IMG/VR virus record: IMGVR_UViG_3300029721_000142
From: a virus
Lineage: Duplodnaviria; Heunggongvirae; Uroviricota; Caudoviricetes
DNA length: 12,070 nucleotides
Direction: 5' to 3' (one strand)
Below the pieces are notes generated by a model. That model had not been told where the DNA came from and made no database searches. It saw only the letters and a program-made list of their open reading frames with translations. Positions 1 to 12,070 of this stretch are shown piece after piece. Each line of letters starts with the position of its first letter. Position 1 is the stretch's first letter. A program made the position numbers and the translations under genes.

Positions 1-1230
1 ATGAGCAGAGCACTTAACAAACTGAGCGATACACAGCTGAGGAAAATCAACGGCACACCCGCCCAAAAAACAGCCTTTCTTAATGACGGTGGAAACCTGA
101 GCGTCAGGCATTCAACCAGTGGCCTTTTAACCTGGTATTTCACTTACAGGGCCGGAACGGGAAGGGGGGCACCACCGGAACGCATTAAGCTGGGAAATTA
201 TCCTGATCTGAGCCTGAAATCAGCCAGGGAAAAAGCCGCCCAGTGTCGCGCATGGCTGGCAGAGGGGAAAAATCCACGTCATGAAATGAATTACACCGTA
301 CAGGAAGCGTTAAAGCCGGTAACGGTTGGCGATGCGCTCACCTACTGGCTTGAGTCGTACGCAAAGGAAAACCGCGTGGATTATGCCGCCCTGAAAAAGC
401 GCCTTAATAATCACGTAATACAGCACATTGGTGCTATGCCGCTGGATAAATGCGAGCTACGGCACTGGCTGGCCTGTTTTGACCAGGTGGCAAAGCGAAC
501 GCCTGTTACTGCCGGATTCTTGCTACAGACGTGCAAACAGGCGCTTAAGTTCTGCCGGAGGCGGCGCTATGCAATCAGCAACGTTCTTGATGATATGAGT
601 GTGGCGGACGTTGGGAAAAAACCGGATATAAGCGAGCGCGTCTTAAGCACCAAAGAACTTGGCGAATTATTGCAGGCACTGGACAAAAAAATATTTTCCC
701 CTTACTACGTCGCACTAATCCGCCTCCTGATTGTTTTCGGATGCCGGACGGTAGAACTGAGGTTATCGGAGATCAGCGAGTGGGATTTTACCGAAATGCT
801 CTGGACCGTGCCGAAAGAACACAGCAAAACGAAGGTGGCAATATTCCGGCCCATACCGGAAGCAATACTGCCGTTCGTCACGCAGCTGGTGGAGCAGAAC
901 AGGCACACGGGCTTATTGCTGGGGGAAGTGAAACAGGAAACAAGCGTGTCGCAGTACGGCAGATTAGCGCACAGGAGGCTAAAACACCCTCACTGGTCAC
1001 TGCATGACATCCGGCGCACCTTTACAACCATGCTGAACGATTTAGGCGTTGATCCGCATGTCGTGGAGCAGCTTACAGGTCATCAGATGCCAGGGATGCA
1101 ACGAGTCTATAACCATTCCCGTTATCTGGATGCGAAACGTGACGCGCTGGATATGTGGACGGAGCGGTTAGGGATACTGGCGGGAACACATGAAAACGTA
1201 ACCACATTGCCAATAGCCAGAGAAATATAA
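1..1230 (+). CDS. int: Tyrosine recombinase / integrase, P4-type
   Basis: 409-aa ORF. C-terminal catalytic region carries the tyrosine-recombinase signature (LHDIRRTF ... LTGHQMPGMQRVYNHSRY, i.e. His-x-x-Arg then the Tyr nucleophile region). N-terminal ~80 aa (LSVRHSTSGLLTWYFTYR) resemble the arm-binding domain of P4-family integrases. Position at the island edge fits. Family assignment from recalled signatures. Confidence 0.9.
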   Translation: MSRALNKLSDTQLRKINGTPAQKTAFLNDGGNLSVRHSTSGLLTWYFTYRAGTGRGAPPERIKLGNYPDLSLKSAREKAAQCRAWLAEGKNPRHEMNYTVQEALKPVTVGDALTYWLESYAKENRVDYAALKKRLNNHVIQHIGAMPLDKCELRHWLACFDQVAKRTPVTAGFLLQTCKQALKFCRRRRYAISNVLDDMSVADVGKKPDISERVLSTKELGELLQALDKKIFSPYYVALIRLLIVFGCRTVELRLSEISEWDFTEMLWTVPKEHSKTKVAIFRPIPEAILPFVTQLVEQNRHTGLLLGEVKQETSVSQYGRLAHRRLKHPHWSLHDIRRTFTTMLNDLGVDPHVVEQLTGHQMPGMQRVYNHSRYLDAKRDALDMWTERLGILAGTHENVTTLPIAREI

Positions 1231-1255: not shown

Positions 1256-1315
1256 GGACAACGTGAAACAACGAGACACAACGACGAACAACAAGGAACA
1301 AAATGGAACAACGGG
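1256..1315. repeat. Six tandem 10-bp repeats (ggacaacgtg / aaacaacgag / acacaacgac / gaacaacaag / gaacaaaatg / gaacaacggg; core RAACAAC) just downstream of int
   Basis: Seen directly: strict 10-bp periodicity over 60 bp, one helical turn per repeat, followed by an AT-rich stretch up to alpA. Candidate protein-binding array (integrase arm sites, AlpA or host factor sites). Confidence 0.6.
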
Positions 1316-1595
1316 TTAAAAATCAGCCATCGTAATAACCATTTGATTTTTATAGGTGTACTGTTTTTTTATACACTGGCGAATTACTCTTAAAAATATG
1401 TAAAAAAGGCGTAAAAGTAAAATTTTATGCCTTTGCATCATAATGAATTAAAAGAGTTTTTATTCTCATTCCCCCTGCTTCTGTAAAACGACCGCCGCCA
1501 GTGTTTGCCATTCCACAAACACCCTGACACAATCCGACACAACCCAACCCAATAATCCACCCAATGACTCTTTAAGAAACAACAAAGGGGGAATT

Positions 1596-1784
1596 GTGTT
1601 AAGCACAGATCGCTTTATACGTGAAAAAGAATGTCAGCAACTTACAGGCCTGAGCCGCTCATGTCGGTACCGCCTGGAAAAAGCCGGACAATTCCCATCA
1701 CGGCGTAAGCTGGGCGGTCGTTCCGTTGGCTGGTCTTTATCCGAAGTTCTGGCATGGAAGGACAGCTGCGAGGCAGTTCACTAA
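1596..1784 (+). CDS. alpA: AlpA-family phage transcriptional regulator (small HTH, excisionase-like)
   Basis: 62-aa ORF with GTG start at 1596 and RBS aaaggggga upstream. The sequence LTGLSRSCRYRLEKAGQFPSRRKLGGRSVGWSLSEVLAWK matches the AlpA family pattern (ITGLSRST.YRL...G.FP....LG.R.V.W...E...W). Position immediately after int is typical of P4-like elements and Gram-negative PICIs. Confidence 0.85.
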   Translation: MLSTDRFIREKECQQLTGLSRSCRYRLEKAGQFPSRRKLGGRSVGWSLSEVLAWKDSCEAVH

Positions 1785-1836: not shown

Positions 1837-2212
1837 ATGAATACTGGATATTCTCCCGAACAAGGGCGGGGCTTCGTTCGTCCTGAAAAACAGAATCTGC
1901 AAAATTTTGCCGAAATTATTCCGGTTATTTCCGGCCTTACTGGCGGGAGTGAAACCAATATTGCTAACGCCAGAGCGTTGCAGATGTTTGATGATAAAAA
2001 GGGAGTAAATTTAACTTACACCCCTGACGGCAATCAGAATATGAGCATTATCTCTGAGTCAGGTTTCTACAAACTAATAAAAACAAAAAGCGCCCCGTTG
2101 CCGGAGCGCCTTTGTGAACAATTAACCTACTGCGCAAAAAATGAATCTGAGCAGTGGGATTATATCAACCATGTGGAGAAGCGCCACAATTGCCGAATAA
2201 CGGGCAAAACAA
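1837..2212 (+). pseudogene. Protein-like 5' part of a 423-codon ORF (1837..3108); probable 3'-truncated gene remnant, possibly with a Bro-N/antirepressor-like fragment
   Basis: The first ~125 codons have normal protein composition (ISESGFYKLIKTKSAPLPERL is faintly Bro-N-like). From about 2212 to 2922 the same frame becomes Cys/Ser/Arg-rich nonsense while the opposite strand holds two well-formed small genes and a terminator. The frame reopens as a plausible small gene only at 2923. No in-frame stop exists before 3108. Confidence 0.3.
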
Positions 2213-2233
2213 AGGCCACCCGCTACGGTGGCC
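2201..2233 (-). terminator. Rho-independent terminator for the minus-strand two-gene operon
   Basis: Perfect 7-bp stem GGCCACC / GGTGGCC (2214-2220 and 2227-2233) with a 6-nt loop. On the minus strand it is followed by TTTGTTTTG. It lies about 80 nt downstream of the 62-aa gene stop. Confidence 0.5.
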
Positions 2234-2312
2234 CCTCGACACAAGCTACACGTTATCCCCAACGCATGAGCATTGCCAACAATGCCACATTTGCGGCTGG
2301 TGGGCAATGCAA

Positions 2313-2501
2313 TCAGTCTGGTTCAGTTCGTTGCCATACCTGCAATGAGCGCTTTTCCCTGTACTCTTTAAGGAATTGCTCAAGGGCAAAAGCACATGGC
2401 GCGAATCTTTCTGATTCATGCTCTATCTTTCTGCGCCGTCTTTTCCGTGCCGGTGATAATGTTTTGGTCAATTCTTTATCGGTCATTGTGTTGTCCTGCA
2501 T
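2313..2501 (-). CDS. Small basic protein (62 aa), downstream partner of the RHH gene; function unknown
   Basis: ORF in the same frame and operon as the RHH gene. Contains an arginine/lysine cluster (ARKRRRRK) followed by a predicted helical segment. An alternative start exists at the second Met (MTDKEL...). Confidence 0.45.
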   Translation of the reverse strand: MQDNTMTDKELTKTLSPARKRRRRKIEHESERFAPCAFALEQFLKEYREKRSLQVWQRTEPD

Positions 2502-2543
2502 AGCAATGCGCCGTAGTTCCTCACACCACGGCGCTGATGGTGA

Positions 2544-2723
2544 TTACTCTGGTTCTTTGGCCTTGCGCCGCTGGCGATATTCAACTTCTCGTTTTAATGC
2601 CGCAGTAACAAATTGCCCCGTACTTTCGCCAGGCATTTTTACCGCCTCAACATTGTTCATAACTTCATGCGGAACCCTTGCCGCAACGGTTTGTGATTTT
2701 GCGTTTACTGCTTTTGTCGCCAT
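2544..2723 (-). CDS. Ribbon-helix-helix (CopG/Arc/MetJ-like) DNA-binding protein, 59 aa; candidate repressor or antitoxin
   Basis: Hand-translated from the minus strand (below the ORF-track size cutoff): MATKAVNAKSQTVAARVPHEVMNNVEAVKMPGESTGQFVTAALKREVEYRQRRKAKEPE. Layout is beta strand (TVAARVP), helix A, loop, helix B, typical of RHH proteins. RBS GAGGGG sits 7 nt upstream of the ATG and an in-frame stop lies 5 codons upstream. It faces the operator cluster at 2773-2826. Confidence 0.65.
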   Translation of the reverse strand: MATKAVNAKSQTVAARVPHEVMNNVEAVKMPGESTGQFVTAALKREVEYRQRRKAKEPE

Positions 2724-2772
2724 GTGGTGTACCCCTCATAAAAAACAAATGCAGTATGCAGGAAAAAAAATA

Positions 2773-2826
2773 AGTGTTCAACACTTGACGTGTTTAACAC
2801 CTGGGTTTAAATTGGTGTTCAACACC
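2773..2826. promoter_or_regulatory. Operator cluster: three copies of the palindrome GTGTT(C/T)AACAC overlapping divergent promoters
   Basis: Seen directly: aGTGTTcAACACt (2773-2785), GTGTTtAACAC (2790-2800), gGTGTTcAACACc (2814-2826). A plus-strand promoter candidate is TTGACG (2785-2790), 17-nt spacer, TAAATT (2808-2813). A minus-strand promoter candidate is TTGAAC, 17-nt spacer, CATACT upstream of the RHH gene. Operators overlap the -35, spacer and +1 regions. Confidence 0.6.
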
Positions 2827-2922
2827 TTGTTGGCGCAAGGTGCAGAAACGACGAAACCCGGCAGTGCGCTAACACTAACCGGGCTTCTAACCACCAACGA
2901 TAGCGAAAGTATCGAGGTAGCT

Positions 2923-3108
2923 ATGAGAAATCATACCACACACCCGCAAGGGCGGGACTCGCACGACCTGAATAAATACATCTGGCGTTTTATCGCCCTG
3001 AGCACGGCACAACCGCGCGTGATTACCATCGAGGCCACCAGCGAACAGGAAGCGCGTCAGCAATCTCCTGATGGCTGCGTGATGGTATTCGCTGCCCGTA
3101 TTCGCTAG
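2923..3108 (+). CDS. Small protein (61 aa), tentatively Icd-like/Ash-region-like; first gene of the early operon
   Basis: ATG at 2923 with RBS GAGGT 5 nt upstream. Protein MRNHTTHPQGRDSHDLNKYIWRFIALSTAQPRVITIEATSEQEARQQSPDGCVMVFAARIR. The ATSE.EAR....FAAR motif resembles small Icd-like proteins found upstream of replication genes in P4-like prophages (from memory, unverified). Confidence 0.45.
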   Translation: MRNHTTHPQGRDSHDLNKYIWRFIALSTAQPRVITIEATSEQEARQQSPDGCVMVFAARIR

Positions 3109-3118
3109 GGGGTAGGCC

Positions 3119-3794: not shown

Positions 3795-4094
3795 ATGAAA
3801 CTTAAATATTCTGGCTTAACTGCCAGTGGCAACACTCACCCTAAATTTACGCGCGGTGATATTTACCGCGACCAGTACGGCGGCACGGTAATGATTAAGG
3901 GCGTGGAAGAACGGCGCGTAACCTACCGCCGTGAAGGTTACGAATATGATTGCGTGATGCCTGTTTATCAGTTCCGGCGTGATTTTTCTCTGGTACAGAC
4001 CGCGCCGCATAACGTGCCCACCAGCAACGCCAGGGCACGGGCAAACATCCAGAAGCTGAAAACCATGATTAACGGATTCAGGGGCAAGAAATGA
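3795..4094 (+). CDS. Hypothetical protein (99 aa)
   Basis: ORF whose stop overlaps the rep start (ATGA at 4091-4094), implying translational coupling. No family recognised with confidence. Confidence 0.55.
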   Translation: MKLKYSGLTASGNTHPKFTRGDIYRDQYGGTVMIKGVEERRVTYRREGYEYDCVMPVYQFRRDFSLVQTAPHNVPTSNARARANIQKLKTMINGFRGKK

Positions 4095-5491
4095 AAAGCG
4101 CACCGAACTTAAAAAAACAGCCTTACGACAAGATGACCGAAGTCATTATTTTTGCGGGTAGTGATGCCTGGGCACATGCGAAACAGTGGCAGGAACAGGA
4201 CGGGCGACTGGCTGGCGATAATGTGCCTCCCGTTGTGCTGGCTGATGATCAACTGGATGAACTGGCAGACCTGAGAATCATCGACGAGGGGCGCTATTGT
4301 GTCCGGCTGTACAAGGCAGGCCACATCAGGCCATCAAATATTAATGCCATTGCGCACAAGCTGGCGGCGGCGGGTGTAACTGATGCGAATTATTACCCCG
4401 AAGGGATGCACAGCCATATGCGGGAGAACTGGCGCGAATACCTGGAACGGGTGCGCGGGAAAGAGCCGGTGGAAGAAAAAAACCACCAGCGAAAAACCAC
4501 GCTACCGATGAGCGTTGGATCTACCGGATACGACACGCAACTGGATTACGTGGTTAAGGGGATTATTCCGGCGGTATCGCTATGCAGCATATACGGGGCT
4601 AGCGGGTCCTATAAATCATTCCTTGCCGGATCGTGGGCGTGCCATGTTGCCACTGGTCGCCAGTGGGGAGGCCGCAGGGTTGCACATGGTGCGGTTCTCT
4701 ATGTGGTTGGTGAAGGCGGTATAGGTGTTCCGCGTCGTGTAAAAGCCTGGGAGGTTGTGCACGATGAGCAGGTGAAAAATCTGTATCTGGTAAACCGCCC
4801 CATCTTTCCGGCTGCCCCGCTTGATGTTGATGAAATGGTTATCGCTGCCCGTCAGGTGGAGCGGGAAACGGGTAAACCTGTACGCATGATTATTCTGGAT
4901 ACGCTGGCGCGTTGCTTTGGTGGGAATGATGAAAATGATTCCCGTGATATGGGGGCGTTTATCCGTGGTTGTGACGAACTGAAACGACGCACAGGGGCCA
5001 CGGTGCTGGTGGTTCACCATTCCGGCAAGGATGAGACGAAAGGCGCGCGCGGTTCCAGTGCATTTCGTGCTTCGCTGGATGCTGAATACCGGATACGCAG
5101 GGAGGACGCAGGAAGCGAAGCGCTGGTTATCTCATGCACCAAAATGAAGGACGCGGAGGAACTCAAAGAAGCCGCATATGACTTACGCGTGGTGGAGCTT
5201 TTTACCGACGCTGACGGTGAATTAATCACGTCGCTGGTGGTGGTGGATGATCCGCGCCCTCCTGTTGAACTGGAGCGCATCGAGGAGGCAGGGAACAAGA
5301 CGGAAAACCATACCGCGCTATGGGGGTGCATCCGTTCACGCACACAGAACGGCGACAAGTGCACGATCCCGCTGTTACGTGATGACATGAAAAAGCTGGG
5401 GTATGAAATGAAAAACTTCCGGCGCTGGCTGTACAAGCTGGAAAAAGATGGGGTTATTCGTATCGATGGGGATGATGTAGCGCCGCTATAA
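4091..5491 (+). CDS. Replication protein: RecA-fold RepA/DnaB-like ATPase (AAA_25 type) with an N-terminal TOPRIM-like region
   Basis: 466 aa. P-loop IYGASGSYKSFLAG, Walker B MIILDTLARC, and the RepA-type motif VLVVHHSGKDETKGARGSSAFRASLD. N-terminal EVIIFAGSDAWAHA ... PVVLADDQLDE is suggestive of a TOPRIM-like domain (inference). Followed immediately by an iteron array. Confidence 0.8.
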   Translation: MKSAPNLKKQPYDKMTEVIIFAGSDAWAHAKQWQEQDGRLAGDNVPPVVLADDQLDELADLRIIDEGRYCVRLYKAGHIRPSNINAIAHKLAAAGVTDANYYPEGMHSHMRENWREYLERVRGKEPVEEKNHQRKTTLPMSVGSTGYDTQLDYVVKGIIPAVSLCSIYGASGSYKSFLAGSWACHVATGRQWGGRRVAHGAVLYVVGEGGIGVPRRVKAWEVVHDEQVKNLYLVNRPIFPAAPLDVDEMVIAARQVERETGKPVRMIILDTLARCFGGNDENDSRDMGAFIRGCDELKRRTGATVLVVHHSGKDETKGARGSSAFRASLDAEYRIRREDAGSEALVISCTKMKDAEELKEAAYDLRVVELFTDADGELITSLVVVDDPRPPVELERIEEAGNKTENHTALWGCIRSRTQNGDKCTIPLLRDDMKKLGYEMKNFRRWLYKLEKDGVIRIDGDDVAPL

Positions 5492-5682
5492 AAGTGAGGA
5501 GCAAAAGCGAGGGGGATAGAAAGAGGGCCAAAATTAGCCCGCTCTCCCTCACTTTTCGACCTGTATACATCCTCAAAAGTGAGGGGTAAAAAAATACTTA
5601 TGAAACACACACATAGAAAAACCGAAAATCCCAACTGCGACGAAGTGAGACGCTTGAAAAAGTGAGGCGAAAAAGTGAGAGG
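5491..5682. repeat. Putative origin of replication: iteron array of AAGTGAG(G/A) repeats around an AT-rich core
   Basis: Seen directly: AAAGTGAGG (5491-5499), variant AAAGCGAGGGG (5504-5514), inverted CCCTCACTTTT (5546-5556), AAAAGTGAGGGG (5575-5586), GAAGTGAGA (5642-5650), AAAAAGTGAGG (5657-5667), AAAAGTGAGAGG (5671-5682). An AT-rich stretch lies at 5587-5630. Iterons directly downstream of rep are the usual ori arrangement in PICI/SaPI-type elements. Confidence 0.55.
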
Positions 5683-5691
5683 TTGCGAGAA

Positions 5692-5943
5692 ATGACCCAA
5701 AAACGCAGAGACAGAACAGAGCCAAAATATAAAGCGTTAGACATGACTGAGCACACCTTAAAGGTGGCAATCAGAACGATAGACCGCCACACGCGGGAAG
5801 GATACGCGAAGGAACATCCCGACCTGATAAGCGCATTCATGACCACGGCGGCGGCAAACTTTGCCACGCTGACAGAACGGGAGATTGCCGAAGCGGAACA
5901 GGTAACAACCATCAACGTTAAAACCGGAGAGGTGGAATCATGA
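5692..5943 (+). CDS. Hypothetical protein (83 aa)
   Basis: ATG at 5692 with RBS GAGAGG upstream. The ORF-track start at 5662 lies inside the iterons. The stop overlaps the ssb start (ATGA). Confidence 0.5.
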   Translation: MTQKRRDRTEPKYKALDMTEHTLKVAIRTIDRHTREGYAKEHPDLISAFMTTAAANFATLTEREIAEAEQVTTINVKTGEVES

Positions 5944-7070: not shown

Positions 7071-8125
7071 TGACAGTAAAAGCAATGGCACTTAACACTA
7101 ACCAGCTTTTTGCGTACCTGAATCGCGGGGATATTGCGGAATTTAAATTCAGTCCGCTGTTTACCACGCTGTTTTTCCCGAACGTGGCGACATTCAGCAC
7201 GCAAAACATCATGCTGGATACCCTGGACATTGAAGAAGTCACCATGTCGGCGTTTTGTTCGCCTATGGTGGGTAGCCAGGTTCAGCGCGATAAAGGGTAC
7301 GAAACCAGCACGATTAAACCTGGCTACATGAAGCCAAAGCACGAAATCGATCCAACGAAAACCATCATGCGCATGGCTGGAGAAGATCCGGCACAGCTTA
7401 ACGACCCTACCTATCGCCGTATGCGCCTGATTACTGGCAATATGCGCCGCCAGATAAACGCCATAAAAGCGCGCGTGGAATGGCTGGCGGTAAATGCGGT
7501 AACGACCGGAAAAAACATCATTGAAGGCGAAGGCATAGAGCGCTATGAAATCGACTGGAAGATACCGGAAAAAAACATCATAGAGCAGGCCGACGGGAAA
7601 AAATGGTCAGAGCAGGACAAAGAAACCCACGATCCAATCTATGATATCGAACTATACGCCGATCAGGCTGGTTGCCCCGCAAACGTCATGATTATGGGCG
7701 CTGAGGTATGGCGAACGTTACGCAGCTTTAAAAAATTCCGTGAGCTGTACGATCTTTCCCGTGGTTCAGAGTCCGCCGCAGAGCTGGCCTGTAAAAACCT
7801 GGGCGAAGTGGTGAGCTTTAAAGGCTATCTGGGCGATATTGCCCTTATCGTCTATTCCGGCAAATACACTGACAGCGACGGCACAGAAAAATATTTCCTT
7901 GAGCCTGATTTGCTTGTCCTGGGCAACACCAACAATAAAGGGCTGGTGGCCTATGGTGCGATTATGGATCAGGACGCAGTAAGAACGGGCGCAACGCAAA
8001 ACATGTTTTACCCGAAAAACTGGATTGAGGACGGCGATCCGGCGATTGAGTACGTGCAGACGCACAGCGCACCGCAGCCGGTTCCGGCAGATATTCGCAA
8101 ATTTGTTACCGTCAAAATTGGTTAA
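7070..8125 (+). CDS. Major capsid protein, lambda gpE-like (HK97 fold)
   Basis: 351 aa. Blocks of recalled similarity to lambda gpE (341 aa): EFKFSPLFTTLFF vs KFKFDPLFLRLFF; KPGYMKPKHEIDP vs TPGYVKPKHEVNP; DPTYRRMRLITGNMR vs DPAYRRRRIIMQNMR; KWSEQDKETHDPIYDIELYA vs EWSKRDKSTYDPTDDIEAYA; YPKNWIEDGDPAIEY vs YPKNWVTTGDPAREF. Similar length. Confidence 0.9.
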   Translation: MTVKAMALNTNQLFAYLNRGDIAEFKFSPLFTTLFFPNVATFSTQNIMLDTLDIEEVTMSAFCSPMVGSQVQRDKGYETSTIKPGYMKPKHEIDPTKTIMRMAGEDPAQLNDPTYRRMRLITGNMRRQINAIKARVEWLAVNAVTTGKNIIEGEGIERYEIDWKIPEKNIIEQADGKKWSEQDKETHDPIYDIELYADQAGCPANVMIMGAEVWRTLRSFKKFRELYDLSRGSESAAELACKNLGEVVSFKGYLGDIALIVYSGKYTDSDGTEKYFLEPDLLVLGNTNNKGLVAYGAIMDQDAVRTGATQNMFYPKNWIEDGDPAIEYVQTHSAPQPVPADIRKFVTVKIG

Positions 8126-9494: not shown

Positions 9495-9562
9495 AGCCGA
9501 TAACTTGTTAATCACTCGCAGCAATGCATGTGATTTGTGCACACTTTCGGTTAACTGGTTCG

Positions 9563-9740
9563 ATGTCCGGTTTTAGTGTCTGTTTTTTGCGCATGTCCGG
9601 TTCATGGAAAGCATGTTTTTATATTTTTCATATGGTTAACTTGCAGAGAAACCGGACATGGATCCCGAAAAATTTTCATAAATAGTGAAAACGCGCGAGG
9701 TCGCCGCCCCGTAACGGGCCATAATTCCAGGAAGGACCCG
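9563..9740 (-). other. Complete cos-like site in inverted orientation: cosQ-like flank, cosN (9698-9709), three R-type repeats ATGTCCGGTT, AT-rich bend region
   Basis: Seen directly. cosN lies on the minus strand as aggtcgccgccc. Repeat copies are at 9563-9572 and 9593-9602 (direct) and 9650-9659 (inverted, nearest cosN), with an AT-rich segment at 9611-9633 between them. This mirrors the lambda cosN-R3-I1-R2-R1 layout but with a different repeat sequence (lambda R elements contain CGTTTCC). Confidence 0.75.
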
Positions 9741-9773: not shown

Positions 9774-10055
9774 ATGACAGAAGCCGAAATACTGCGATTA
9801 ATCCGCCGCGTTGCCGGAATCAGCCAGCAGGCCGACGAACAGACCACGCAGCCGGACAGCGTGACCGCCGAAAATTATGTTCGTGTGGTTGCTGAGGTGA
9901 TTCGCCGTAATGGTATCCAGCTTAATGATGTGGATATGCGCAACATACGGATCCGCGTTCTTGAAATGCTGGCCTACAATCGCCGCGTGGCACTGTATCG
10001 GGAAACGGAGAAAATTACGTACCACTGGAAGAAGCCGGAGCGGTTGCGGCGGTAA
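9774..10055 (+). CDS. Hypothetical protein (93 aa), last island gene
   Basis: ATG at 9774 with RBS gatggggg 5 nt upstream. The ORF-track start at 9576 would read through the cos repeat and is rejected. No family recognised. Confidence 0.55.
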   Translation: MTEAEILRLIRRVAGISQQADEQTTQPDSVTAENYVRVVAEVIRRNGIQLNDVDMRNIRIRVLEMLAYNRRVALYRETEKITYHWKKPERLRR

Positions 10056-10057
10056 CT

Positions 10058-10217
10058 GGTTGATATTTTCGAAATTCGCCAGCGGCGAACATCGGGGAAA
10101 CCAGCCTAACCCGTTGATATTTTCGGGAACCTCAAATTGAAGAGGTCGGAAACATAACCCGTCATATTCTGGATGCTGATAATTACCACGCAGCCCATTA
10201 AGGCCTAACCCGTTGAT
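10058..10217. repeat. Degenerate direct repeats at the island/chromosome junction (GGTTGATATTTTCG; CCTAACCCGTTGATATTTTCGGG; TAACCCGTCATATT; GCCTAACCCGTTGAT)
   Basis: Seen directly at 10058-10071, 10105-10127, 10155-10168 and 10203-10217. Candidate right attachment-site arm sites; the left att is outside the window so a core direct repeat cannot be confirmed. Confidence 0.4.
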
Positions 10218-10460: not shown

Positions 10461-10490
10461 TTGTGTCTATTTGTTCCACGTTGTTTCATA
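10461..10490. repeat. Three tandem 10-bp repeats (ttgtgtctat / ttgttccacg / ttgtttcata), the inverted counterpart of the RAACAAC array at 1256-1315
   Basis: Seen directly. The reverse complement reads tatgaaacaa / cgtggaacaa / atagacacaa, sharing GAAACAACG, GGAACAAA and GACACAA with the left array. Lies 120-150 bp downstream of the phoQ stop. Confidence 0.4.
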
Positions 10491-10609
10491 CAGTGCAACG
10501 ATCGGTGTAGTTAATGGTGTAGTCAATTTGCGATTTTTAGCACTTTTTGCAGTGCAAATCATTTAATTAAATCAATGGCTTGCCTTGATGTAGTGATAAA
10601 AGGGCATAT

Positions 10610-12070
10610 TTATTCATCTTTCGGCGCAGAATGCTGGCGACCAAAAATCACCTCCATCCGCGCACCGCCCAGCATGCTCTCTCCGGCGACGATTTTACCC
10701 TCATATTGCTCGGTGATTTCGCGGGCTACCGCCAGCCCTACACCTTGCCCAGGGCGTAAAGTATCAACCCGTTGACCACGGTCGAAAATGACCTCTCGCT
10801 TGCTTAATGGAATACCGGGGCCATCATCCTCGACCACAATATAGAGATGCTCGTCGGTTTGCCTTGCAGAAATTTCGACAAACTCGAGGCAATATTTACA
10901 GGCATTATCCAGCACGTTGCCCATCACCTCGACAAAATCGTTCTGCTCACCGACAAAGCTGATCTCTGGCGAAATATCGAGAGAGATATTGACCCCTTTG
11001 CGTTGATACACTTTGTTCAGCGCTGAGGTGAGATTGTCCAGCAGTGGGGCGACCGGATGCAGCTCGCGGCTGAGCAATGTCCCGCCGCGCATACTGGCAC
11101 GATGCAGGTAGTAGCCAATTTGCTGTGAAATGCGGCTGATTTGCTCCAGCATTACCGGCTCAGCATCACTGACGCTCATCTTTTCACTACGCAGAGAACG
11201 CAGCGTACTTTGCAGCACCGCCAGTGGCGTTTTCAGACTATGGGTCAGGTCGGTGAGCGTCGTACGGTATTTGTCGTAACGTTCGCGTTCACTTTTTAAC
11301 AATCGGTTCAGGTTTCGTACCAGACTGGTCAGTTCTCGCGTTGTGGCTGGATTGAGCAATTCGCGGTTATGTTCTTCCAGTTCGCGGACTTCTTTTGCCA
11401 GGGCTTCGATGGGGCGTAAACTCCACCAGGCGGCGACCCACAGCAGCGGGATCACTAACAGCAGATTGGCTGAGAGCACATAGATAAACCAGCTCCAGAC
11501 CATATAGGAACTTTTTAGCTCCACCGGAATGGTATCCACCACCACAATGGTTAATTTTGGCATCCGCGATGTTGCCGGGTAGACGTTTACTGCCACCGAG
11601 TGGGTCATCTCCGCGTCGTCATCATCTTCCCGCACTTCCTGCAACTGTTGCTGTATCGAATGATCTCCACTCAGCAAGAGGCTGGTATCGTTAACATCCG
11701 CTTCAATTTCATGAAAACCATTCGATTTCAGCCAGTCAGGCTGGATCATCTTCATCAGCCAGGGCACGTCACGTTGCGCCCATAAAAGCTGCCCGTTCTC
11801 ATCATAAATTAGCGTCATGGTGGGGCTTTGCTTGTCGATATTTTCGGGTAACTCGACATGCAACTTATTGTTTTCCCACTTCGCAAGGGTATAGAACAGA
11901 TTGCTCTCGCCACGTAACAGCCGAAACGTAGTTTTATCGAAACTGACGCTATAACCGATCAGCGCGACCATTCCGTAGGCAAGCGAAAGCACCAGTACTA
12001 CCGCTGCCGTTGCCAACAGAAAACGTACCCGCAGCGAGAGCGGGAAAAAAAGACGCAGTAATTTTTTCAT
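10610..12070 (-). CDS. phoQ: Sensor histidine kinase PhoQ (PhoP/PhoQ two-component system)
   Basis: 486-aa ORF spanning to the window edge. Two transmembrane segments flank a periplasmic sensor domain with the acidic patch EDDDDAE, followed by HAMP, the phosphoacceptor His box ([12 protein letters not shown]) and an ATPase domain with G boxes (DDGPGI, GQGVGL). Sequence matches E. coli PhoQ as I recall it. Confidence 0.97.

Follow-up and report, generated by a model that had tools for sequence, protein, structure and literature searches.

Helically Phased Arrays as Candidate AlpA Operators in an EcCICFT073-Type Phage-Inducible Chromosomal Island

Results

Organization of the Island and Its Relatives

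The window (the whole stretch of 12,070 nucleotides analysed here) starts at the ATG of the integrase gene int and ends in phoQ, on the minus strand. EcCICFT073, the prototype phage-inducible chromosomal island (PICI) of E. coli, which is inserted between roxA and phoQ in strain CFT073, is a close relative, with 97–98.6% nucleotide identity across most of the window, and the island of the window is likewise placed between roxA and phoQ. The int product is 98–100% identical to the integrases of EcCICFT073 and of the O157 islands. It is followed, in order, by alpA, genes for a RepA-like helicase, SSB, and PerC, lambda-type capsid and decoration genes, and a gene for a small HTH protein. The features discussed below are the following.

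1..1230, plus strand: int, a P4-family tyrosine integrase with an N-terminal arm-DNA-binding domain (Pfam Arm-DNA-bind_3, Phage_int_M, Phage_integrase)
1256..1315, plus strand: array A, six 10-bp units with consensus G-R-A-ACAA-C-G-W, a proposed AlpA operator array
1316..1470, no strand: AT-rich tract (25% GC) between arrays A and B
1336..1348, minus strand: match to the IHF consensus, AATCAAATGGTTA, 20 bp downstream of array A, a putative IHF site
1505..1533, plus strand: predicted alpA promoter, TTGCCA, 17-nt spacer, TG-n-CACAAT (TGaCACAAT)
1516..1545, plus strand: array B, CAAACAC / GACACAA / GACACAA at 10-bp spacing, with degenerate units to about 1565
1596..1784, plus strand: alpA, a 62-aa winged-helix protein (Pfam Phage_AlpA)
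10461..10490, minus strand: array C, GAAACAAC / GGAACAAA / GACACAAG, in the right (P) att arm, −144 to −115 from the core centre
10504..10527, plus strand: doubled motif, GGTGTAGTTAAT GGTGTAGTCAAT, candidate arm-type sites of the integrase; the left arm has a second copy in the same orientation
10570..10582, plus strand: match to the IHF consensus, between the doubled 12-bp motif and the core
10594..10616, no strand: att core, TGATAAAA - GGGCATA - TTTATTCA, from the comparison of attL (L001), attR (window), and the empty K-12 site

Island diversity was sampled from E. coli genomes, about 989 of which gave a match, and from metagenome contigs. The islands compared occupy five integration sites (roxA/phoQ, abgR/smrA, tqsA, cspD/clpS, and a magnesium-chelatase fragment), to which metagenomic relatives are added. 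The integrase scan of genome contigs gave at least one locus (in Shigella flexneri), and the search for AlpA homologues gave 19 proteins.

Relative to EcCICFT073 the window is a mosaic (positions 2577–3117 and 4238–5763, compared with the CFT073 locus L010). The replication module has a RepA/AAA_25 helicase (4091–5491) here and a primase in CFT073, and a 423-aa ORF (1837–3108), which has no family match, aligns with L010 only at its 5′ end and at 2836–3117. A decayed copy of the island is found at the same site in strain Z1323PEC0013 (L005, 4110–4130), where the integrase is truncated near codon 374 and fused to DNA that lies some 150 bp to the left of the array in the right arm; this remnant consists of int′ and the right arm, and of nothing else. 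In strain CREC-629 the DNA upstream of int (L017, about 395–525) is the right-arm sequence of the islands called type 2 below (L019, reverse complement, 9550–9680) and not chromosomal, an arrangement that suggests tandem or recombinant islands.

A Six-Unit Array with a Strict 10-bp Period

Array A starts 26 bp after the int stop codon. Its units, which start at 1256, 1266, 1276, 1286, 1296, and 1306, read in order GGACAACGTG / AAACAACGAG / ACACAACGAC / GAACAACAAG / GAACAAAATG / GAACAACGGG, and are base for base those of CFT073. An invariant ACAA core is present in six copies at exact 10-bp spacing (1258...1311), and TRF finds a period of 10. A previous, sequence-only reading of the window had described six tandem RAACAAC units with a strict 10-bp period at 1256–1315. 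Number and period stand, and so does the core of the motif, as ACAA is present in all six units, but the literal RAACAAC is found in only three of the six. Among 2000 windows simulated with a first-order Markov model, the longest exact 4-mer run of period 10 was two in 1577 cases, three in 422, and four in one; a further 5000 simulations, run with the A-rich composition of the region, likewise gave a longest run of four. Since simulated runs never exceed four, chance does not explain the six units of array A. A role at the RNA level was ruled out: array A folded as RNA gives no structure signal (z = +0.8), and Rfam has no match anywhere in the window, which is consistent with a role at the DNA level.

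Other Phased Clusters Are Confined to the att Arms and the int–alpA Region

The left att arm, which the window lacks, was supplied by L001, a genome with 99.8% identity, and scanned together with the window. Phased ACA[AC] units form four clusters of three or more, against 0.13 expected: array A (six units), array B at 1519–1542 (three units), 10461–10484 on the minus strand (three units), and the left arm (four units). Within the 12 kb scanned, phased clusters are confined to the two att arms and the int–alpA intergenic region.

Array C reads GAAACAACGT / GGAACAAATA / GACACAAG on the reverse complement, that is, three units spaced by 10 bp, which bears out the shorter inverted array previously noticed at 10461–10490; it is unchanged in O157-type islands and in islands at the tqsA site. 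The four units of the left (P′) arm adjoin int and are oriented like the right-arm units. The clear ones lie at +89..+122, and looser GAAAC-type units lie nearer the core, at +23..+67; the latter constitute a fifth, weaker cluster that was aligned by hand. Arrays A and B are inverted relative to the att-arm arrays. The units TGAAACAACG, TGGAACAA, and AGACACAA are common to array A and the arms, and a 75-nt segment is duplicated between the left and right arms.

This distribution modifies two earlier statements. The arrays had been placed near both ends, but array A lies about 1.43 kb inside the island, the left junction being outside the window, about 177 bp upstream of the int ATG. The position of array A after int had seemed at odds with textbook layouts; this is an artefact of a window that begins at the int ATG, as the left arm upstream of int has arrays of its own where they would be expected. 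Array A is part of the regulatory region between int and alpA, along with array B over the predicted alpA promoter.

The att Core and a Doubled 12-bp Motif That Follows the Integrase Arm Domain

The crossover lies within GGGCATA (window 10602–10608), between TGATAAAA and TTTTATCA, which are the core sites in inverted orientation, and the crossover region overlaps the phoQ stop codon (10610–10612). Integration linked to a tRNA is ruled out, as the site is the roxA–phoQ intergenic region, with the crossover at the phoQ stop codon. Integrases that are 78–90% identical are found at other sites (cspD/clpS, abgR/smrA, tqsA). The tqsA site is common to L013/L014 and L015, whose arm domains differ; hence, site choice and arm recognition appear to be separable.

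A tandem 12-bp pair (GGTGTAGTTAAT GGTGTAGTYAAT, or GGTGTAGTYAAT twice) is present once in each arm, at −101..−78 and +132..+155 from the core centre. It is also found at 11955–11978 in L001, at about 11207–11230 in L018, and at 7875–7898 and 19452–19475 in L020. In L013 and L014, residues 1–60 of the integrase are 70% identical to those of the O157-type integrase and the remainder 92–97%. The doubled motif of these two islands reads GGTGTAGTCACT in the left arm and GGTGTAGTCACT/TCATT in the right arm, about 14 kb apart, and AlpA and the 10-bp arrays are unchanged despite the altered motif (TCACT). The 3′ half of the motif thus varies with the N-terminal domain of the integrase (TTAAT, TCACT, TCATT), and distant integrases are associated with GGTGCAGTCAGT (L024) and TGGTCCAAA (L022). 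Because it shifts with the integrase arm domain at both arms, the doubled motif is a better candidate for the arm-type sites than the 10-bp arrays, and judging from this co-variation it probably represents them. The 10-bp arrays do not co-vary with the arm domain, being identical in L013/L014. Array C and the left-arm arrays are close enough to the core for arm sites (tens to about 150 bp), and array A, about 1.43 kb from the core centre, is not.

A similar arrangement is known from helper-embedded PICIs (HE-PICIs), where tgTGTATTGCantgTGTATTGCa occurs as a co-oriented tandem 12-bp pair, once per att arm and at fixed distances from the crossover, with copies 81 bp upstream and 132 bp downstream of the centre (PMC10111431). 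That motif was reported to be absent from other PICIs, and its binder, the integrase arm domain or AlpA, was left open (PMC10111431). What tgTGTATTGCantgTGTATTGCa matches here is the neighbouring GGTGTAGTYAAT motif, not the 10-bp array, and the assignment of the doubled motif to the integrase would answer the question of the binder raised by the HE-PICIs.

There are six IHF-consensus matches in the window, against 0.59 expected. Three copies of TAACYSGTTGATATTTTCG (10053–10071, 10107–10125, and 10206–10217) contain one such match each; these repeats follow the small HTH gene, close to the right end, and could be related to packaging or to cos.

AlpA and the int–alpA Intergenic Region

The AlpA protein of the window is identical to that of EcCICFT073. 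Its AF2 model (pLDDT 88) is a winged helix, and the best structural matches of the model are excisionases: 8c3t (GIsul2), RdfS (8dgl), Pukovnik Xis (4j2n), and TorI (1z4h), with TM values of 0.83–0.90 for 8c3t and of 0.63–0.70 for 4j2n. The sequence also matches PDB 8c3t (E = 2.6e-6). AlpA therefore models as an excisionase-type winged helix, and from its Phage_AlpA family and these matches it qualifies as a small directionality factor of winged-helix type encoded by the island. Work on EcCICFT073 showed that AlpA activates the fragment with its own promoter and leaves the expression of a Pint fusion unaffected, and that AlpA over-expression leads to int-dependent excision and replication (PMC6092414). 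No repressor is known for Gram-negative PICIs, and alpA induction requires a helper-phage factor (PMC6092414). The primers of the published PalpA-lacZ fragment that is activated by AlpA map to 1198–1653 of the window, which includes arrays A and B. The Pint primers of the 2018 supplement have no exact match in CFT073, and the position of that fragment is imprecise. A literature search found no mapped AlpA site in PICIs.

The predicted alpA promoter is the only sigma-70-like match within 1100–1900; the scan found no second sigma-70 promoter closer to array A, and manual candidates were poor. Its architecture is kept in O157-type islands (TTGCCA-17-AACAAT) and in type-2 islands (TTGCAT-17-TGaCACGAT). 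Array B extends over the predicted −10 and the start region, one of its units containing the −10 hexamer CACAAT, and it is kept as a phased array in other lineages. Thus, the AlpA-activated fragment contains both arrays, the promoter in it is a predicted one, and the regulation is activation, not repression. Read by eye, the IHF-consensus match AATCAAATGGTTA is kept in L007 and has one mismatch in O157-type islands. The AT-rich tract holds a conserved block (1378–1395) and a conserved hairpin (1405–1434) with a 12-bp stem, AAAGGCGTAAAA...TTTTATGCCTTT (−16.6 kcal/mol, z = −5.1, plus strand). On the minus strand this hairpin is followed by a U-run, as in a terminator of leftward transcription, and either an antisense RNA or the int transcript could stop here.

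Conservation and Co-Variation of the Arrays

The six phased ACAA-type cores of array A are kept in eight lineages, where the spacers have diverged widely and the 10-bp phase has suffered no indels. The ACAA columns vary in 2 of 48 cases, against 29 of 72 for the non-core columns (Fisher p = 3.9e-6, eight lineages). An almost constant core amid variable spacers argues that a phased, protein-binding core is under selection, and speaks against a relic of slippage. The earlier proposal of a protein-binding array on one face of the helix is in agreement with this, as by their pattern of substitution the units appear to behave as selected, helically phased sites.

The type-2 islands (L003, L004, L017, and L019) keep the integrase β-strand segment and the doubled motif. 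Their AlpA is 59% identical, with a recognition helix CRTTRYELEK instead of the SRSCRYRLEK of type 1, and in both arms, as well as upstream of alpA, the array units have the form CGAAC(AA). By hand tally, CGA precedes the core in 13 of 16 type-2 units and in 1 of 16 type-1 units. A fis-site island from another species (L020) combines a type-2-like AlpA helix and TTCG-type arrays with a different integrase and a different doubled motif. L024, with a CRTTRY helix and yet TGAAC units, is an exception, and the link between helix and flank is imperfect. Type-1 and type-2 lineages also differ throughout, and this half of the comparison is confounded by shared descent. On these alignments, the flank of the arrays seems broadly to follow the AlpA variant. 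Together with L013/L014 this constitutes a double dissociation: the doubled motif changes with the integrase arm domain, and the array flanks change with the AlpA type. The type-2 islands have no array directly after int, so that array A is lineage-specific rather than essential.

A comparison with the att regions of related P4-type integrases had been proposed earlier as a check. It yields arm arrays in the relatives of the island, but not in CP4-57 of K-12, used as positive control, where the DNA upstream of intA has a doubled 12-bp motif (TAGGCCCA twice) and no clear 10-bp ACAA-type array. The distant islands L020, L022, L024, and L027 are alike in overall architecture; their arrays are short and imperfect and lend weak support.

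Discussion

The Arrays as Candidate AlpA Operators

Directionality factors typically bind head-to-tail to repeats that are one helical turn apart. The arrays fit this description, with six ACAA cores at 10-bp spacing in array A and three to four units in array B and the arms. The arm arrays also lie beside the integrase sites and an IHF-like site, as expected of an excision factor; array A is outside the arms. Clusters found only in both arms and in the int–alpA region follow the distribution known for dual-function directionality factors. The reading that we prefer, to which we would give a probability of roughly 0.6, is that the arrays are AlpA operators that serve both excision and autoactivation. 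An EcCICFT073-type island would then carry four strictly phased "AlpA box" clusters, plus the weaker fifth, a view we hold with the same confidence. That AlpA is the protein bound by the 10-bp arrays is, at these odds, an argument from distribution, partial co-variation, and elimination. The sequence-only reading had proposed either the integrase or an excision or regulatory factor as binder; the latter now has AlpA as its best candidate, and the right att arm also holds members of the motif family, in inverted orientation.

Under the AlpA reading, each 10-bp unit (about G-R-A-ACAA-C-G) would take one AlpA monomer, and units one helical turn apart would line up monomers head-to-tail in a cooperative, DNA-bending filament like those of Xis, Cox, and Apl. 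AlpA bound in the att arms, where the arrays adjoin an IHF-like site and the doubled sites proposed for the integrase, would give the excisive complex its shape. In the alpA promoter region, which arrays A and B flank and overlap, AlpA would drive the positive autoregulation measured for EcCICFT073, with the six near-consensus units of array A serving as a high-affinity nucleation site that makes the switch cooperative. Both the binder and the route from binding to activation are what we infer.

In phage 186, five repeats for Apl lie at att and another seven at the switch promoters (PMC7498355). Apl, like P2 Cox, is a small DNA-binding protein encoded nearby that controls both excision and transcription (PMC7498355), and both resemble the present case in having tandem repeats spaced by a helical turn at att plus a set at promoters, where Apl has seven repeats and array A six. 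The differences are that Apl and Cox repress the promoters they cover, whereas AlpA of EcCICFT073 activates its own fragment, that arrays are found here on both att arms, and that the protein belongs to the Phage_AlpA family and not to that of Cox or Apl. The Xis proteins of lambda (X1-X1.5-X2), Pukovnik, and Gifsy-1 share the head-to-tail winged-helix monomers on phased repeats beside arm sites and IHF; lambda has three sites on one arm only, no such promoter array, and negligible sequence similarity. P4 Vis and CP4-57 AlpA are of the same protein family and have the same gene neighbourhood beside a P4-type integrase. P4 excision is reported to require Vis, which bends att DNA (cited in PMC6092414, PMC7498355), and CP4-57 AlpA is reported to raise intA expression (PMC6092414).

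Two other proteins invite comparison. BldC of Streptomyces is a small protein of MerR/Xis fold that binds head-to-tail to variable numbers of direct repeats and activates or represses. The BldC–DNA structure (6ama) is among the fold matches of the AlpA model, but BldC is a chromosomal developmental regulator without a role in recombination and recognizes another repeat sequence. The Pseudomonas aeruginosa AlpA, a Q-like antiterminator, shares with the PICI protein its name and an HTH acting on a promoter-embedded element. It is much longer (DNA-contact residues extend up to 142), its N-terminal ring enters the RNA exit channel, and a single protomer binds one 6-bp element between −35 and −10. 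The 62-aa PICI AlpA consists of the winged-helix module only, and hence the mechanism of its namesake is not transferable; with its different architecture and single 6-bp site, the antiterminator model was ruled out.

Alternative Binders

It is unlikely that the 10-bp units are integrase arm-type sites recognized by the Arm-DNA-bind_3 domain, with array A titrating the integrase or allowing it to regulate alpA. The arm sites P′1–P′3 of lambda are consecutive and about 10 bp apart, units of the family lie in both att arms next to the core, and the arm unit GTTGTAG resembles the GGTGTAG of the doubled motif. As no repressor is known for Gram-negative PICIs (PMC6092414), an integrase acting as one is conceivable. 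Yet it is the doubled motif, not the 10-bp array, that changes with the arm domain, in both arms some 14 kb apart, and this stands against the integrase alternative raised in the sequence-only reading, as the arrays of those islands are constant. The four half-sites of the doubled motif, two per arm, fit an integrase tetramer, as proposed for HE-PICIs (PMC10111431), array A is too distant to be an intasome arm, and the array flank broadly tracks the AlpA variant with the β-strand segment of the integrase constant.

Similarly improbable is a different binder altogether, such as an OmpR/PhoP-type response regulator, a nucleoid protein, or a helper-phage inducer of alpA. OmpR/PhoP-type winged-helix regulators read direct repeats phased by 10–11 bp (e.g., GAAACA or TGTTTA), six contiguous 10-bp half-sites reproduce the layout of F1–F3 at ompF, and the units GAAACAAC and TGTTTCA resemble what we take to be OmpR b-half-sites or PhoP-box half-sites. 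The AACAA core is also common to type-1 and type-2 islands in the same host, and the helper-phage factor needed for alpA induction (PMC6092414) would suit such a binder. However, OmpR/PhoP half-sites alternate or come in pairs, whereas one unit is here repeated uniformly six times, and the flanks differ with the AlpA type within one host species. The same arrays are found at unrelated chromosomal sites, and the adjacency to phoPQ is thus coincidental. Found beside the integrase sites in both att arms, they suggest that the element itself encodes the binder, as an accessory factor of recombination.

That array A is a non-functional relic of replication slippage or of the duplication of an att-arm segment is very improbable. 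The near-identity of its units to the arm units TGAAACAACG, TGGAACAA, and AGACACAA, the 75-nt duplication between the arms, and the type-2 islands without array A would be compatible with such an origin, but one would expect a relic to decay uniformly and to gain indels, and not to keep, in eight lineages, conserved cores among free spacers in an indel-free 10-bp phase (p = 3.9e-6). Replication iterons were ruled out by location: the replication genes are at 4091–5491 and contain no phased ACAA cluster; the published PICI ori is downstream of pri.

Promoter Activation by AlpA

The main difficulty of the AlpA reading is the layout of array B, which is awkward for simple activation. It lies over the predicted −10 and start, a position that in the Apl and Cox systems leads to repression. 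As AlpA nevertheless activates, either the promoter prediction is wrong or the mechanism of activation is unusual. Classical directionality factors are also usually found on one arm, not on both. Furthermore, Pint is unaffected by AlpA (PMC6092414), though on the AlpA reading the protein should bind the left arm.

A more speculative version of the AlpA reading, which we consider doubtful, has a factor of Xis fold activating its own promoter from flanking and overlapping filament sites. The elements would be array A upstream, the IHF-like site, the 25%-GC tract, and array B over −10 and start; activation would come from the remodelling or unsilencing of the AT-rich tract, or from wrapping of the promoter. 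Since the arrays of the alpA region are inverted relative to those of the arms, the same filaments could couple the alpA switch to the excisive complex. Such a mode of activation, if real, is not described for Xis, Cox, or Apl proteins and would explain the repressor-free silence of Gram-negative PICIs.

Among the phage satellites of Gram-negative bacteria, islands of the EcCICFT073 type serve as the reference model, with AlpA as their master switch. The present analysis gives candidate AlpA operators, with consensus G-R-A-ACAA-C-G, together with a defined att core, and opens the way to ask how one small protein couples excision to a self-amplifying induction. Operator arrays of this kind are known from P2 and 186, and the advance is incremental rather than a new principle. 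Orthogonal pairs of AlpA and operator (GRAACAA vs. CGAACAA) could be engineered for PICI-based delivery vehicles. As for the doubled motif, the DNA upstream of intA in CP4-57 of K-12 (L028, 700–770) has a 12-bp-spaced pair, TAGGCCCATTGA TAGGCCCAACGA, together with an inverted copy, and from such sequences doubled arm-type sites may be general for P4-type integrases.
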